Shown in pieces: positions 47,487-62,490 of a stretch of DNA of 64,000 bases; the first letter of the stretch is position 1; each line of letters starts with the position of its first letter. A program made the position numbers and the translations under genes. Origin of the DNA: Pristiophorus japonicus (lineage: Eukaryota); the NCBI RefSeq assembly GCF_044704955.1, contig NC_092008.1, forward strand, positions 4,216,001 to 4,280,000. The letters run 5' to 3'. The notes below the pieces were generated by a model. That model was given only the letters and a program-made list of their open reading frames with translations. It ran no database searches and was not told the origin of the DNA.

Positions 47487-49285
47487 CAACGGGCATGATC
47501 TTTGCAGCGCGACAGCTGCAGGAAGAATGCAGGGAGCAGCACCGGCCCTTATACATGGCCGCCTTCGACCTTACGAAGGCCTTTGACATTGTCAACCGCG
47601 AGGGTCTATGGAGCGTCCTCCTCCGTTTCTGATGCCCCCAAAAGTTCGTCACCATCCACCGCCTGCTCCACGATGATAGGCAGGCCGTGATCCTGACCAA
47701 GGGATCCATTACAGACCCAATCCACGTCCAGACCGGGGTCAAGCAGGGCAGCATCATCGCCCCCCAACCCTCTTCTCAATCTTCCTCGCTGCCATGCTCC
47801 ACCTCACAGTCAACAAGCTCCCCGCTGGAGTGGAACTAAACCACAGAACCAGTGGGAACCTGTTCAACCTTCGCCATCTCCAGGCCAGGTCCAAGACCGT
47901 CCCAACCTCTGTCGTCGAGCTACAGTACGCGGACAACGCCTGCACACAGAGGCTGAACTCCAGGACATAGTCGACGTATTTACCGAGGTGTATGAAAGTA
48001 TGGGTCTTACGCTAAACATCTGTAAGACAAAGGTCCTCCACCAGCCTGTCCTCGCCGCACAGCACTGCCCCCCAGTCATCAAGATCCACGGCGCGGCCCT
48101 GGACAACGTGGACCATTTCCCATACCTCGGGAGCCTCCTATCAACAAGGGCAGACATTGGCGACGAGGTCCAACACCGCCTCCAGTGCGCCAGTGCAGCC
48201 TTCGGCCGCCTGAGGAAAAGAGTGTTTGAAGACCAGGCCCTCAAATCTACCACCAAAGCTCATGGTCTACAGGGCTGTAGTGATACCCGCCCTCCTGTAT
48301 GGCTCAGAGACATGGACCGTGTACAGTAGACACCTCAAGTCGCTGGAGAAATACCACCAACGATGTCTCCGCAAGATCCTGCAAATCCCCCGGGAGGACA
48401 GACGCACCAACGTTAGCGTCCTCGACCAGGCCCAACATCCCCAGCATCGAAGCACTGACCACACTCGACCAGCTCCGCTGGGCAGGGCCACATTGTCCGC
48501 ATGTCCCCAGACACGAGACTCCCAAAGCAAGCGCTCTACTCGGAACTCCTTCACGGGCAAACGAGCCAAAGGTGGGCAGAGGAAACGTTACAGGGGACCA
48601 CCCTCAAAGCCTCCCTGATAAAGTGCAACATCCCCCACCGACACCTGGGAGTCCCTGGGCCCAAAGACCAGTCCGCCCTAAGTGGAGGAAGTGCATCCGG
48701 GAGGGCGCTGAGCACCTCGAGTCTCGTCGCCGAGAGCGTGCAGAAACCAAGCGCAGGCAGCGGAAGGAGCGTGCGGCAAACCTGTCCCACCCTCCCCTTC
48801 CCTCAACCACTGTCTGTCCCACCTGTGACAGGGACTGTGGCTCCCGTATTGGACTGTTTTTTTTTTTAAATTCGTAGCTGATCGTTCCAATTCTTTGTCA
48901 AATCACAAACGCCAGAGGTCACCTTGCACATGCCAAGGATCACTCTGCGCCAATGCTCTTAGCCAAAAGGCCTAGAGCCACTGCACCGTTCCTGGAAGTA
49001 CTGCAATACCAGGTTCGTGCCATGGAGGTGGATGGGTCAGGTCCCCCACACACCTCCGTGGAGGTGGATGGGTCAAACCTCCCCACCCACCTCCTGTTTC
49101 CAAAAATGCAAGCATATACCTTCCTGACCAGGGAGAAACCACCCGGAGGTCATGGTGGCTGGTCAGAAACGGTACTACACTTGATCTTAGCCAAAAGGAT
49201 TGGACTGTTCAGCCACCGAAGGACTCACTTCAGGAGTGGAAGCAAGTCTTCCTCGATCCCGAGGGACTGCCTATGATGGTGATGA
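47487..49285 (+). mobile_element. RTE-clade LINE (RT to 3' end, decayed), interrupted at 48859-49198
   Basis: FDLTKAFD, TGVKQG, LQYAD, FPYLGS, ALLYGSETW, CPTCDRDC motifs; (gat)n-like tail. Confidence 0.9.
48859..49198 (-). mobile_element. U2 snRNA-derived retroposon (SINEU-like or chimeric U2 retrocopy) with poly(A) and 11-bp TSD
   Basis: Minus strand begins ccttttggctaagatcaagtgtagta (U2 5' region), has Sm site atttttgg and stem-loop IV acctggtattgcagtacttccaggaacggtgca; TSD attggactgtt at 48848-48858 and 49199-49209; T11 run 48857-48867. Confidence 0.88.
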
Positions 49286-49949
49286 AATCTCTTCAATAAT
49301 GGGGTGTTCGCCCACACCCCACATGCCTAAGAGACTGGGCTGATCCGCAGTCTTGACACAACTTTGATTTGCACACAATAACCGCACCAGCCATTAACAT
49401 TCCCATTAGATTTATAATTGGATGCCAATTCCGTGAGGTGCACTATTTAAGCTTTGCGAATTGCGATAATATTGGCAGACTGAATCACCTTGCATGCTAA
49501 TATTGACAGATCCACCTATGCAAATGCCTACACTCGGAGTCCTGGCTCTCAGAATTTATTGAAAGTACCTTACTTTGTTGGGTCACACGCAACCTTGCAA
49601 TATTGAATTAACGCCGCGTCCAGACCGCCTCGCAGACGCACCTTGTGATCTCAACCACCACCAAACCGTGGCTTACACGGCCACTGGATTTCCTAGTTGT
49701 TGATCGAAACACGTTTTCCAAACAACCAGGAAACATCAACCCCAAACAAAAACAGCCAGACTGAGACAGGGAGAATAATAAAGCAGGAAACTGCCTGGGG
49801 GAGAAAAAAAAAGTTCGAAACTTTTTCCTCTCGAAAAGTTTGGAAACTTTTTAAAAACTCCACAAACTTTTTCCAAAGAAGTTTTTTTAAAAATTAAAAT
49901 ACTGCAACTTAATTATAGAAGTCGAATCGTTTTCATCGCGTCCTACCCC

Positions 49950-53797: not shown

Positions 53798-53872
53798 ATG
53801 GAGCAATACAGCATCCTGGGGCGGATCGGGGAGGGGGCGCACGGCATCGTCTTCAAGGCCAAACACATCGAG
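53798..53872 (+). CDS. CDK20: Cyclin-dependent kinase 20, exon 1
   Basis: MEQYSILGRIGEGAHGIVFKAKHIE|gtgggc; CDK20-typical GEGAHG loop. Confidence 0.93.
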
Positions 53873-53884
53873 GTGGGCGGGAGG

Positions 53885-56800
53885 CGCCGGGCCCTCACTA
53901 CCCACTCCGACACTCCCTCACTACCGCCCTCCGACACTCCCTCGGCACCGCCCCTCCGACTCTCCCTCACTACCGCCCCTCTGACACTCCCTCACTACCG
54001 CGCTCCGACACTCCCTCACTACCCGCTCCGACACTCCCTCACTACCGCCCCTCCGACACTCCCTCACTACCCACTCCGACACTCCCTCACTACCGCCCCT
54101 CCGACTCTCCCTCACTACCGCCCTCCGACACTCCCTCACTACCGCCCCTCCGACACTCCCTCACTACCCACTCCGACACTCCCTCACTACCGCCCTCCGA
54201 CACTCCCTCACTACCGCCCCTCCGACTCTCCCTCACTACCGCCCCTCCGACTCTCCCTCACTACCGCCCCTCCGACTCTCCCTCACTACCGCCCCTCCGA
54301 CACTCCCTCACTACCGCCCTCCGACACTCCCTCACTACCGCCCCTCCGACTCTCCCTCACTACCGCCCCTCCGACACTCCCTCACTACCGCCCTCCGACA
54401 CTCCCTCACTACCGCCCCTCCGACTCTCCCTCACTACCGCCCCTCCGACTCTCCCTCACTACCGCCCCTCCGACACTCCCTCACTACCGCCCTCCGACAC
54501 TCCCTCACTACCGCCCCTCCGACTCTCCCTCACTACCCACTCCGACACTCCCTCACTACCGCCCTCCGACACTCCCTCACTACCGCCCCTCCGACTCTCC
54601 CTCACTACCGCCCCTCCGACACTCCCTCACTACCGCCCTCCGACACTCCCTCACTACCGCCCTCCGACACTCCCTCACTACCGCCCCTCCGACACTCCCT
54701 CACTACCGCCCCTCTGACACTCCCTCACTACCCACTCCGACACTCCCTCACTACCGCCCTCCGACACTCCCTCACTACCCACTCCGACACTCCCTCACTA
54801 CCGCCCCTCCGACACTCCCTCACTACCGCCCTCCGACACTCCCTCAGCACCGCCCTCCGACACTCCCTCACTACCGCCCCTCCGACACTCCCTCACTACC
54901 CACTCCGACACTCCCTCACTACCGCCCTCCGACACTCCCTCACTACCGCCCCTCCGACACTCCCTCACTACCGCCCTCGTACACTCCCTCACTACCGCGC
55001 TCCGACACTCCCTCACTACCGCGCTCCGACACTCCCTCACTACCGCGCTCCGACACTCCCTCACTACCGCCCTGCGACACTCCCTCACTACCGCCCTCCG
55101 ACACTCCCTCACTACCGCCCTCGTACACTCCCTCACTACCGCCCTCGTACACTCCCTCACTACCGCCCCTCCGACACTCCCTCACTACCGCCCCTCCGAC
55201 ACTCCCTCACTACCGCCCTCGTACACTCCCTCACTACCGCCCTCGTACACTCCCTCACTACCGCGCTCCGACACTCCCTCACTACCGCGCTCCGACACTC
55301 CCTCACTACCGCGCTCCGACACTCCCTCACTACCGCGCTCCGACACTCCCTCACTACCGCGCTCCGACACTCCCTCACTACCGCCCCTCCGACTCTCCCT
55401 CACTACCGCCCCTCCGACTCTCCCTCACTACCGCCCCTCCGACACTCCCTCACTACCGCCCTCCGACACTCCCTCACTACCGCCCCTCCGACTCTCCCTC
55501 ACTACCGCCCCTCCGACACTCCCTCACTACCGCCCTCGTACACTCCCTCACTACCGCCCTCGTACACTCCCTCACTACCGCGCTCCGACACTCCCTCACT
55601 ACCGCGCTCCGACACTCCCTCACTACCGCGCTCCGACACTCCCTCACTACCGCGCTCCGACACTCCCTCACTACCGCCCCTCCGACTCTCCCTCACTACC
55701 GCCCCTCCGACTCTCCCTCACTACCGCCCCTCCGACTCTCCCTCACTACCGCCCCTCCGACACTCCCTCACTACCGCCCTCCGACACTCCCTCACTACCG
55801 CCCCTCCGACTCTCCCTCACTACCGCCCCTCCGACACTCCCTCACTACCGCCCTCCGACACTCCCTCACTACCGCCCCTCCGACTCTCCCTCACTACCGC
55901 CCCTCCGACTCTCCCTCACTACCGCCCCTCCGACACTCCCTCACTACCGCCCTCCGACACTCCCTCACTACCGCCCCTCCGACTCTCCCTCACTACCCAC
56001 TCCGACACTCCCTCACTACCGCCCTCCGACACTCCCTCACTACCGCCCCTCCGACTCTCCCTCACTACCCACTCAGACACTCCCTCACTACCGCCCCTCC
56101 GACACTCCCTCACTACCGCCCTCCGACACTCCCTCACTACCGCCCTCCGACACTCCCTCACTACCGCCCCTCCGACACTCCCTCACTACCGCCCCTCTGA
56201 CACTCCCTCACTACCCACTCCGACACTCCCTCACTACCGCCCTCCGACACTCCCTCACTACCCACTCCGACACTCCCTCACTACCGCCCCTCCGACACTC
56301 CCTCACTACCGCCCTCCGACACTCCCTCAGCACCGCCCTCCGACACTCCCTCACTACCGCCCCTCCGACACTCCCTCACTACCCACTCCGACACTCCCTC
56401 ACTACCGCCCTCCGACACTCCCTCACTACCGCCCCTCCGACACTCCCTCACTACCGCCCTCGTACACTCCCTCACTACCGCGCTCCGACACTCCCTCACT
56501 ACCGCGCTCCGACACTCCCTCACTACCGCGCTCCGACACTCCCTCACTACCGCCCTGCGACACTCCCTCACTACCGCCCTCCGACACTCCCTCACTACCG
56601 CCCTCGTACACTCCCTCACTACCGCCCTCGTACACTCCCTCACTACCGCCCCTCCGACACTCCCTCACTACCGCCCCTCCGACACTCCCTCACTACCGCC
56701 CTCGTACACTCCCTCACTACCGCCCTCGTACACTCCCTCACTACCGCGCTCCGACACTCCCTCACTACCGCGCTCCGACACTCCCTCACTACCGCGCTCC

Positions 56801-58880
56801 GACACTCCCTCACTACCGCGCTCCGACACTCCCTCACTACCGCGCTCCGACACTCCCTCACTACCCACTCCGACACTCCCTCACTACCCACTCCGACACT
56901 CCCTCACTACCGCCCTCCGACACTCCCTCGGTACCGCCCCTCCGACACTCCCTCACTACCCACTCCGACACTCCCTCACTACCGCGCTCCGACACTCCCT
57001 CACTACCGCCCTCCGACACTCCCTCACTACCGCCCTCCGACTCTCCCTCACTACCGCCCCTCCGACACTCCCTCGGCACCGCCCCTCCGACACTCCCTCG
57101 GCACCGCCCCTCCGACACTCCCTCGGCACCGCCCCTCCGACGCTCCCTCGGCACCGCCCCTCCGACACTCCCTCACTACCGCCCTCCGACACTCCCTCAC
57201 TACCGCCCCTCCGACACTCCCTCAGCACCGCCCTCCGACACTCCCTCACTACCGCCCCTCTGACACTCCCTCACTACCCACTCCGACACTCCCTCACTAC
57301 CGCCCTCCGACACTCCCTCACTACCCACTCCGACACTCCCTCACTACCGCCCCTCCGACACTCCCTCACTACCGCCCTCCGACACTCCCTCAGCACCGCC
57401 CTCCGACACTCCCTCACTACCGCCCCTCCGACACTCCCTCACTACCCACTCCGACACTCCCTCACTACCGCCCTCCGACACTCCCTCACTACCGCCCCTC
57501 CGACACTCCCTCACTACCGCCCTCGTACACTCCCTCACTACCGCGCTCCGACACTCCCTCACTACCGCGCTCCGACACTCCCTCACTACCGCGCTCCGAC
57601 ACTCCCTCACTACCGCCCTCCGACACTCCCTCACTACCGCCCTCCGACACTCCCTCACTACCGCCCTCGTACACTCCCTCACTACCCACTCCGACACTCC
57701 CTCACTACCGCCCTCGTACACTCCCTCACTACCCACTCCGACACTCCCTCACTACCCACTCCGACACTCCCTCACTACCGCCCTCCGACACTCCCTCACT
57801 ACCGCCCTCGTACACTCCCTCACTACCGCCCTCGTACACTCCCTCACTACCGCCCCTCCGACACTCCCTCACTACCGCCCCTCCGACACTCCCTCACTAC
57901 CGCCCTCGTACACTCCCTCACTACCGCCCTCGTACACTCCCTCACTACCGCGCTCCGACACTCCCTCACTACCGCGCTCCGACACTCCCTCACTACCGCG
58001 CTCCGACACTCCCTCACTACCGCGCTCCGACACTCCCTCACTACCCACTCCGACACTCCCTCACTACCCACTCCGACACTCCCTCACTACCGCCCTCCGA
58101 CACTCCCTCGGTACCGCCCCTCCGACACTCCCTCACTACCCACTCCGACACTCCCTCACTACCGCGCTCCGACACTCCCTCACTACCGCCCTCCGACACT
58201 CCCTCACTACCGCCCTCCGACTCTCCCTCACTACCGCCCCTCCGACACTCCCTCGGCACCGCCCCTCCGACACTCCCTCGGCACCGCCCCTCCGACGCTC
58301 CCTCGGCACCGCCCCTCCGACACTCCCTTAGCACCGCCCTCCGACACTCCCTCACTACCGCCCCTCCGACACTCCCTCGGCACCGCCCCTCCGACGCTCC
58401 CTCGGCACCGCCCCTCCGACACTCCCTTAGCACCGCCCTCCGACTCTCCCTCACTACCGCCCCTCCGACACTCCCTCGGCACCGCCCCTCCGACACTCCC
58501 TCGGCACCGCCCCTCCGACACTCCCTCGGCACCGCCCCTCCGACGCTCCCTCGGCACCGCCCCTCCGACGCTCCCTCGGCACCGCCCCTCCGACACTCCC
58601 TCGGCACCGCCCCTCGGCACCGCCCCTCCGACACTCCCTCGGCACCGCCCCTCCGACGCTCCCTCGGCACCGCCCCTCCGACGCTCCCTCGGCACCGCCC
58701 CTCCGACACTCCCTCGGCACCGCCCCTCGGCACCGCCCCTCCGACACTCCCTCGGCACCGCCCTCCGACACTCCCTCGGCACCGCCCTCCGACACTCCCT
58801 CACTACCGCCCCTCCGACACTCCCTCGGTACCGCCCCTCCGACACTCCCTCGGCACCGCCCCTCCGACGCTCCCTCTGCA
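53885..58880. repeat. ~5-kb 24/25-bp minisatellite making up almost all of CDK20 intron 1
   Basis: Unit ccgacactccctcactaccgcc(c)ct, about 200 copies. Confidence 0.95.
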
Positions 58881-58951
58881 CCGCCTCGCGCGCTCCGCGC
58901 CGCTCTCCCTCTCCGCCGCCCTCGCTCACTGTGCTTCCTCTCGCTCCGCAG

Positions 58952-59065
58952 ACGGGGGAGACGGTCGCCCTGAAGAAGGTGGCACTCCGCAAGCTGGAGG
59001 ACGGAATTCCCAACCAGGCGCTGCGAGAGATCAAAGCCCTGCAGGAGATCGAGGACAACCAGTAT
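58952..59065 (+). CDS. CDK20: CDK20 exon 2
   Basis: cag|TGETVALKKVALRKLEDGIPNQALREIKALQEIEDNQY|gtgagt; diagnostic PNQALRE helix. Confidence 0.96.
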
Positions 59066-59225
59066 GTGAGTCCGCCCGCCCTCCGCGACAACAGGCGGGC
59101 ACAGACCCGCCGCCGTGTGTCACCCTCCACACCTCAATAACAACAGAAGAATTCGCAGCGGGAGTCGGCCAGTCAGCCCCGCGACCCTGCTCCGCCATTC
59201 AATACGATCGCGGCTGATCTGAGTG

Positions 59226-61220: not shown

Positions 61221-62490
61221 AACATCATCATCATCGGCAGTCCCTTGGAATCGAGGAAGACTTGCTTCCTCTCTAAAAATGAGTCCTTAGGTGGCTGAAC
61301 AGGTGGATCTGTCAATATTAGCATGCAAGGTGATTCAGTCTGCCAATATTATCGCAATTCGCAAAGCTTAAATAGTGCACCTCACGGAATTGGCATCCAA
61401 TTATAAATCTAATGGGAATGTTAATGGTGCGGTTATTGTGTGCAAATCAAAGTTGTGTCAAGACTGCGGATCAGCCCAGTCTCTTAGGCATGTGGGGTGT
61501 GGGCGAACACCCCATTATTGAAGAGATTTCATCACCATCATCGGCAGTCCCTCGGGATCGAGGAAGACTTGCTTCCACTCCTGAAGTGAGTCCTTAGGTG
61601 GCTGAACAGTCCAATACGGGAGCCACAGTCCCTGTCACAGGTGGGACAGACAGTGGTTGAGGGAAGGGGAGGGTGGGACTGGTTTGCCGCACGCTCCTTC
61701 CGCTGCCTGCGCTTGGTTCCTGCACGCTCTCGGCGACGAGACTCGAGGTGCTCAGCGCCCTCCCGGATGCACTTCCTCCATTTAGGGCGGACTGGTCTTT
61801 GGCCAGGGACTCCCAGGTGTCGGTGGGGATGTTGCACTTTATCAGGGAGGCTTTGAGGGTGGTCCCTTGTAACGTTTCCTCTGCCCACCTGGGGCTCGTT
61901 TGCCCGTGAAGGAGTTCCGAGTAGAGAGCTTGCTTTGGGAGTCTCGTGTCTGGAGGGCATGCGGACAATGTGGCCCTGCCCAGCGGAGCTGGTCGAGTGT
62001 GGTCAGTGCTTCGATGCTGGGGATGTTGGCCTGGTCGAGGACGCTAACGTTGGTGCGTCTGTCCTCCCGGGAGATTTGCAGGATCTTGCGGAGACATCGC
62101 TGGTGGTATTTCTCCAGCGACTTGAGGTGTCTACTGTACATGGTCCGTGTCTCTCAGCCATACAGGAGGGCAGGTATCACTACAGCCCTGTAGACCATGA
62201 GCTTGGTGGTGGATTTAAGGGCCTGGTCTTCAAACACTCTTTTCCTCAGGCGGCCGAAGGCTGCACTGGCGCACTGGAGGCGGTGTTGGATCTCGTCGTT
62301 AATGTCTGCCCTTGTTGATAGGAGGCTCCCGAGGTATGGGAAATGGTCCACGTTGTCCAGGGCCGCGCCGTGGATCTTGATGACTGGGGGGTAGTGCTGT
62401 GCAGCGAGGACAGGCTGGTGGAGGACCTTTGTCTTACGGATGTATAGCGTAAGGCCCTTGCTTTCGTACGCCTCAGTAAATCTATATCAA
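61221..62490 (-). mobile_element. RTE LINE (62490-61530) with a ~230-bp flank shared with the 47.5-kb copy, followed by a second short RTE 3' end (61300-61221)
   Basis: RTE motifs; 61301-61615 is the reverse complement of 49199-49517. Confidence 0.88.

Follow-up and report, generated by a model that had tools for sequence, protein, structure and literature searches.

The window analyzed here, a 64,000-nt stretch of the genome of the shark Pristiophorus japonicus, contains a 340-nt insert on its minus strand (49198-48859) that splits, in antisense orientation, a broken RTE-like LINE fragment and its flank. An exact 11-bp target site duplication (TSD), attggactgtt, lies on both sides of the insert (48848-48858 and 49199-49209), as had been claimed from the letters alone in a first-pass annotation of this DNA. 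The parts of the insert, in the order of its own strand, and the stretches that frame it are as follows.

49199..49209 (-), 5' copy of the 11-bp TSD; the same sequence is a single copy at the empty paralogous site (~61,605-61,615)
49173..49198 (-), U2 head, U2 nt 13-38, 26/26 identical to host U2
49118..49172 (-), subfamily-A junction and a worn U1 stem-loop I fragment (~49156-49118), by alignment to subfamily D
49100..49107 (-), Sm-type site, 10/10 to host U2 nt 99-108
49015..49099 (-), remodeled U2 stem-loop III, by U2 alignment, with a predicted long hairpin
49074-49059 and 49038-49023 (-), internal 16-nt duplication inside stem-loop III
48981..49014 (-), U2 stem-loop IV, U2 nt 153-186, 32/34 to host U2
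48957..48972 (-), second U2 5' fragment, U2 nt 11-26, 16/16 to host U2
48868..48956 (-), family tail of 89 nt, aligning to the ancestral tail
48859..48867 (-), poly(A) of 9 A (11 counting the first two TSD bases)
48848..48858 (-), 3' copy of the 11-bp TSD
47978..49517 (+), host stretch, a broken RTE-like LINE fragment plus flank, split antisense by the element
61301..62481 (-), paralogue of the host stretch in inverted orientation, lacking the insert

The sister copy that had been placed near 61.6 kb is indeed empty at the site: this paralogue (61.3-62.5 kb) is without the insert, and it agrees with the host stretch at 299/301 positions on one side of the insert and at 828/853 on the other. 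Since the match extends beyond the 3' end of the host repeat, which we presume to be an RTE from motifs in its broken translation, the empty paralogue appears to have arisen by local inverted duplication and not as an insertion of its own. Elsewhere in the window, the exons of a kinase, presumably CDK20-like by its peptide, occupy 53,798-59,070; its first intron holds a long tandem repeat, and the insert lies ~4.6 kb upstream.

Every feature of the proposed anatomy of the insert was recovered where it had been placed, with small corrections. The 26-nt U2 5' region (49198-49173), the Sm site atttttgg, the duplicated segment and the second U2 5' fragment (48972-48957) were all located with the identities listed above, stem-loop IV runs from 49014 to 48981, and the non-U2 tail, put at about 90 nt, measures 89 nt. 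The poly(A) that had been described as A11 is present with a length of 9 A, the other two being the start of the TSD. The 'diverged middle' of the element is likewise present, but it is a worn U1 fragment, an assignment made by alignment to older copies that match U1, the U1 match in the window copy alone not being significant (score 31 versus 26.8 +/- 4.9 for shuffles). The Rfam check that had been suggested for U2 gave 58.6 bits, above the gathering score of 46, compared with 191-192 bits for the real host U2 genes. Only U2 passes an Rfam threshold within the window; the matches to Prion_pknot, MIR5565 and CcsR1 were weak, below threshold, and were dismissed. The window copy is 5'-truncated by 12 nt, full family copies beginning at U2 nt 1, and it differs from another subfamily-A copy at 2/330 bases. 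The end of its U2 head falls exactly on the insertion point given for Keno and Utopia in PMC4640811 (nt 38/39). A classical polymerase III SINE, which would have a tRNA, 7SL or 5S head with an internal promoter and be free of internal T-runs, was rejected, since U2 alone passes Rfam in the window and the element has internal T4 and T5 runs; the T-run of the Sm-type site would also be expected to stop RNA polymerase III.

A search of the 5.9-Gb genome with the window copy as the query returned 1,871 candidates, and all 40 of those scored were 99-100% identical at full length, on many contigs. A diagnostic 15-mer at the junction of the second U2 piece and the tail had 5,531 exact matches, which is a lower bound on the copy number, and its reversed control had none. 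The composite is thus not single-copy, and both counts agree with the first-pass proposal that the insert is a recent copy of an established U2-derived master element. The variant U2 gene that had been named as the contrary case is not what lies here either, since the tail is without match to the natural U2 downstream flank; likewise, a simple U2 pseudogene was rejected for want of a colinear U2 body followed by a natural 3' flank. For a sample not picked by likeness, we took 96 of the first 100 15-mer matches on one contig (C1), of which 94 have poly(A); the two copies without clear poly(A) were removed and the 94 kept, and the sample comprises 85 loci after removal of five overlapping ones. 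These 94 copies are 92-100% identical to natural reference copies, 54 of them begin inside the first 30 nt, and 4 of them belong to subfamily A, that of the window's copy, 14 to B, 3 to C and 32 to D, with 41 truncated or unassigned. A TSD of 8-24 bp was found at 49/83 loci and none by the applied rule at 34/83, and tandem runs of different subfamilies have one TSD in common. The snRNA head, the length of ~340 nt, the absence of coding sequence, the poly(A), the TSDs and the shared junctions are those of the SINEU class, and this is a real amplified retroposon family. One subfamily-A copy, 99.4% identical to the window's (L002, G000:C3992:89994-90333), splits a histone H2B frame a few codons past its start; the nearest full-length relatives of this H2B gene, 94-98% identical, are shark proteins. 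Young copies also strike genes, and they would be usable as markers of shark populations.

In its architecture, the element is a U2-U1-U2-U2-tail chimera. Full copies begin with a head, U2 nt 1-28 or 1-38, that does not differ from host U2. In subfamily D, host U1 nt 3-57 is placed after U2 nt 1-29, with 90.5% identity to host U1 nt 7-48 (E 6e-9), and subfamilies A, B and C retain a worn part of this segment. The genome also holds an older, U1-less U2 retroposon (592 motif matches, control 0) with a near-complete U2, a second U2 5' piece corresponding to U2 nt 2/7-35, a shorter related tail, poly(A) and TSDs; the 89-nt tail of the window copy is expanded from the ~50-nt tail of this ancestral family. 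Judging from structure rather than from a tree, the order likely ran from the U1-less ancestor to D, and from D to C, B and A. In D, U1 replaces U2 nt 30-97, so that the element also lost the target site that it had carried itself, and subfamily A regained U2 nt 29-38. The tail gave no significant match to the 3' UTR of the LINE described below (8.8% of shuffles score as high), to the whole LINE, to U2 or to the U2 downstream flank. At one locus (L077), a truncated SINE and an ancestral copy lie within one TSD, as if copied jointly from one source locus. Ancestor, intermediates and young copies all persist in one genome. Compared with the first observation of the insert, the U1 part, the ancestor without U1 and the occupation of U2 genes are new.

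Eighteen subfamily-B copies interrupt genuine U2 genes at nt 38/39, which is the Keno site. In each of them, U2 nt 1 of the element stands directly behind the unaltered U2 upstream flank, in register; in the tandem array, the copies end in 20 to >80 A followed by U2 nt 38-191, with no TSD. The insertion replaces the first 37-38 nt of the gene without a TSD because the element begins with U2 nt 1-28. A census of five stretches of one U2 array type covered 271 units, of which 239 are intact, 17 carry a fused B copy and 15 are occupied by a LINE (12 fused, 3 behind other junctions), and one further B copy sits in a second U2 gene type that has another upstream flank. Since B occurs in two U2 gene types with different flanks, targeted insertion must have happened independently two or more times. 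The 17 array copies do not stand for 17 events, given that there may be redundancy among the unplaced array contigs, and they probably derive from few. Genome-wide, poly(A) is joined to U2 nt 38 at 54 junctions (control 0), some of them assigned by coordinates: 21 belong to the SINE (20 B and 1 D), one to the ancestral SINE and 31 to the LINE, with one left out. Another 16 SINE ends at the same U2 site lie in dispersed ancestral copies or U2 fragments (control 0), and none of these is promoter-flanked.

Several features of the U2 loci were recorded alongside. The large U2 array (L043-L054), whose U2 is the top Rfam scorer, has a unit of ~770 bp with (GTT)n(GAT)n spacers; a look for short motifs found no octamer or clear PSE in its upstream flank, and both U1 flanks have an octamer. 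On four unplaced U2 array contigs 16/254 units are occupied, and at one array edge (G000:C19:69.62-69.73 Mb; L401-L411, L060) a LINE or SINE occupies 16 of the 17 detected units. At G000:C9:113.4-113.8 Mb (L273-L286), every second-type U2 gene has behind it an old, fixed LINE 3' fragment and a further U2 3' part, both copied along with a repeat unit of 18-21 kb.

Only subfamily B was found promoter-fused. The lone D copy in front of a U2 3' part has lost the proximal upstream flank, and the U2 upstream flank is present at 0/41 of the 5'-complete A copies. A source gene for A, the window's subfamily, was likewise not found by two promoter-plus-element searches (among the 40 scored of 1,360 and the 40 scored of 1,154 candidates), in the junction census or among the 271 array units, and no U2 gene was seen to hold the B variant that is commonest among dispersed copies. 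Three U2-resident B variants each have letter-identical dispersed copies (2, 3 and 14, at loci enriched by the searches and with duplicates removed by hand), and two of the four C1-sample copies bearing both a B head and a B tail match U2-resident variants.

The LINE in the U2 arrays is 5.7 kb long, has a U2 nt 1-38 head of its own and ends in poly(A). Its ORFs encode 581 and 1,147 aa; ORF1 matches PF23057, PF23058 and PF00098 (zinc knuckle), and the LINE further carries PF03372 (APE-type endonuclease), PF00078 (reverse transcriptase, RT) and PF13966 (zf-RVT). Both ORFs are open in 14 array copies, and the three copies compared are 99-100% alike. The RT matches a protein named 'transposon TX1' at 48% and Takifugu BAD04856.1, which may be a Keno protein, at 51%. 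Like Keno, the LINE sits in U2 genes, its 3' flank beginning at nt 38/39, and joins an APE-type endonuclease to an RT; Utopia has a restriction-like nuclease. By its target and domains, this LINE would work like Keno, and it is very probably the mobilizing partner of the SINE, a Tx1/Keno partner having already been guessed at and the intact LINE at the same U2 site now lending that guess support. LINE and SINE copies are stacked at common off-target TSDs on contigs C4 and C2. A LINE tail stands directly ahead of the SINE at 2/41 A loci, adjacency was seen at 2/30 LINE loci, and an adjacent LINE tail was found at 0/85 of the unbiased C1-sample loci.

Older relatives of the LINE, at 76-94% identity, are also present. 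The U1 gene repeat units (L031, L033, L037-L042) contain a 1-kb LINE 3' fragment (91-93%) that ends ~500 nt upstream of the gene, and at L307 U1 nt 42-164 and flank come after the tail of an older Keno-type LINE, which suggests an insertion into a U1 gene. At L287, a promoter-fused LINE bears a 5'-truncated old SINE copy at the U2-like site of its head, and the head junction of subfamily A resembles this LINE head.

The dispersed insertion sites are a relaxed U2 target. At 43 such sites (49 minus six with no leading A or with an upstream tail), 5.28/12 bases match the U2 target versus 3.75 at background A-run starts (z 7.0), an excess that 0/20,000 resamples reach, and a G-pyrimidine precedes the cut at 22/49 sites versus 15.6% of the background (p 1e-6). 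The 41 5'-complete A copies have no common upstream extension besides tandem neighbors and host repeats. Among the truncated copies, 27/40 end -6 to +14 nt from the Sm T-run (p 7e-16 versus a uniform spread; ends taken from local alignments). This 5'-truncation cluster falls just 3' of the Sm site, where it coincides with the base of the long hairpin, and 5/30 copies examined of the ancestral family start at the same Sm-proximal place. An Sm ring that blocks the RT would explain the frequent truncation just 3' of the Sm site.

The element is without an internal promoter and carries T-runs that would stop polymerase III. Since the promoters of snRNA genes are external, the transcription of an snRNA-headed SINE has been posed as an open question, to which a targeted insertion at the start of a U2 gene, with an intact young LINE beside it, offers a concrete and testable answer. 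We are fairly confident in reading the window element as a young copy of a U2/U1 retroposon of several thousand copies that is likely transcribed from the U2 promoter and likely copied by the Keno-type LINE. The U2-resident copies are probably the source genes. What weighs against this reading is that the A copies show no U2 upstream flank, that the commonest dispersed B variant was not seen in a U2 gene and that the large array lacks an octamer or clear PSE by the short-motif look, together with a tail unlike the LINE 3' UTR, the absence of LINE tails beside the C1-sample loci and the loci at which no TSD was found. Poly(A), TSDs, common junctions and subfamilies are all present in the family, and the intact two-ORF APE-type LINE and subfamily B occupy the same U2 nt 38/39 site. 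Since the head consists of the initial 28-38 nt of U2, an element that inserts at nt 38 and is joined by homology sits at the U2 transcript start, with its nt 1 at the former U2 nt 1 and with U2 nt 38-191 behind it. From the U2 promoter would come an RNA composed of the element, a templated poly(A) and the U2 3' part, and the downstream U2 sequence in this RNA could pair with the cut target, as PMC4494074 argues for co-transcribed elements. The LINE protein would prime at the poly(A), at U2 genes and far more often at U2-like sites elsewhere, and such off-target priming would give dispersed copies like that in the window. Occupied units, in turn, would spread through the tandem array by its own homogenization. 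With less weight, the element RNA may also bind an Sm ring. A more far-reaching version, which we put forward tentatively and do not rate as the likelier case, is that the element parasitizes the snRNA gene system, taking the U2 promoter and 3' end signal and passing its RNA through snRNP biogenesis (cap, Sm ring) before it is copied by the LINE. If this were true, hybrid decoy snRNAs would be produced by ~6% of the units in a U2 array; the branch-point-pairing motif has been regained in the subfamily of the window's copy.

A rather unlikely alternative is that the U2-resident copies are dead ends, and that the family is transcribed by read-through or from upstream LINEs while its U2 head is maintained, or added anew through template switching. 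This would fit with the lack of a promoter-fused copy of A, C, D or the commonest B variant, with the 2/41 A copies directly behind a LINE tail and with the short U2 5' piece added to some truncated copies, and repeated 5' additions are documented in PMC4494074. However, the head junctions are fixed per subfamily instead of being variable, the 41 A copies are without a common upstream extension other than tandem neighbors and host repeats, and three B variants are both U2-resident and identical among the dispersed copies; as for the missing sources of older subfamilies, a homogenizing array can lose them.

The partner could also be misassigned for the bulk of the copies, if another poly(A) LINE (L1 or a different Tx1) made most of the dispersed ones and the Keno-type LINE only those in U2 genes. 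The SINE and LINE do not have their tails in common, the older LINE relatives at 76-94% identity exist, and most dispersed sites fit the U2 target only loosely; yet the dispersed-site profile tracks this target over ~12 positions, stacked LINE and SINE copies have off-target TSDs in common, and the Keno-type LINE is young and intact, which makes a second LINE of this kind quite improbable. As for U2 retropseudogenes or chimeras that arose independently, or a flanked variant U2 gene, the Rfam U2 score above the gathering threshold is what such copies would give, but real U2 genes score three times higher, the tail differs from the U2 flank, and thousands of copies have the same U2/U1/U2/tail junctions. 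These shared junctions refute an independent origin of the copies, and the chance that we attach to it is negligible.

The literature that we searched, with subscription papers, Repbase Reports and Dfam outside its scope, described neither a shark SINE with an snRNA head nor a SINEU inside U2 genes. PMC5381603 gives SINEU as crocodilian, and the words 'snRNA' and 'SINEU' do not occur in the main text of PMC5499810. It is unlikely, though by no means negligibly so, that the family already has a Repbase or Dfam entry. The crocodilian SINEU-1, -2 and -3 are <500 bp long, with U1/U2-derived segments, poly(A) and internal oligo-T (Kojima 2015, PMC4494074). According to the same account, they target Mariner-N4, their mobilization by a Keno-related Tx1 element was inferred from shared targets, template switching to U2 RNA was proposed for keeping or re-adding the U2 head, and transcription was left open. 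The shark element resembles them in its length class, U1/U2 segments, poly(A), oligo-T, repeated head remodeling and lack of a tail in common with the LINE, and its tandem copies sandwiching one TSD recall SINEU-3 (PMC4494074). In contrast, its host is a shark, its U2-U1-U2-U2-tail layout is none of the three described, and its target is the U2 gene itself rather than Mariner-N4; copies in register inside U2 genes are absent from the account in PMC4494074, as far as its accessible part goes. By these descriptions, the element belongs to the SINEU class but is not SINEU-1, -2 or -3, and it is a likely independent origin of SINEU outside crocodilians.

Keno and Utopia are inserted in U2 genes with a 3' flank that begins at nt 39, and for Utopia U2 nt 1-38 is lost or replaced at the 5' junction (PMC4640811). 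The resident LINE is like Keno in its 3' flank at U2 nt 38/39 and its APE-type endonuclease, whereas the SINE, unlike Keno and Utopia, is non-coding and non-autonomous, and the available part of PMC4640811 mentions no passenger SINE. The finding supplies a likely partner LINE and a likely promoter for an snRNA-headed SINE, which had been left open for the crocodilian SINEU (PMC4494074). The closest working analogue is the R2 SIDE, a non-autonomous element found at its partner's site in the multicopy 28S rRNA genes and dependent on host-gene transcription (PMC3414825). A SIDE-type deleted LINE was rejected for the shark element, since the 3' end of the partner LINE is not retained: SIDEs are described as R2/R1 deletion products with a ribozyme and the LINE 3' end, whereas the shark element is built from snRNA pieces without a LINE tail, and, unlike in a SIDE, its 5' end coincides with the start of the host gene itself.
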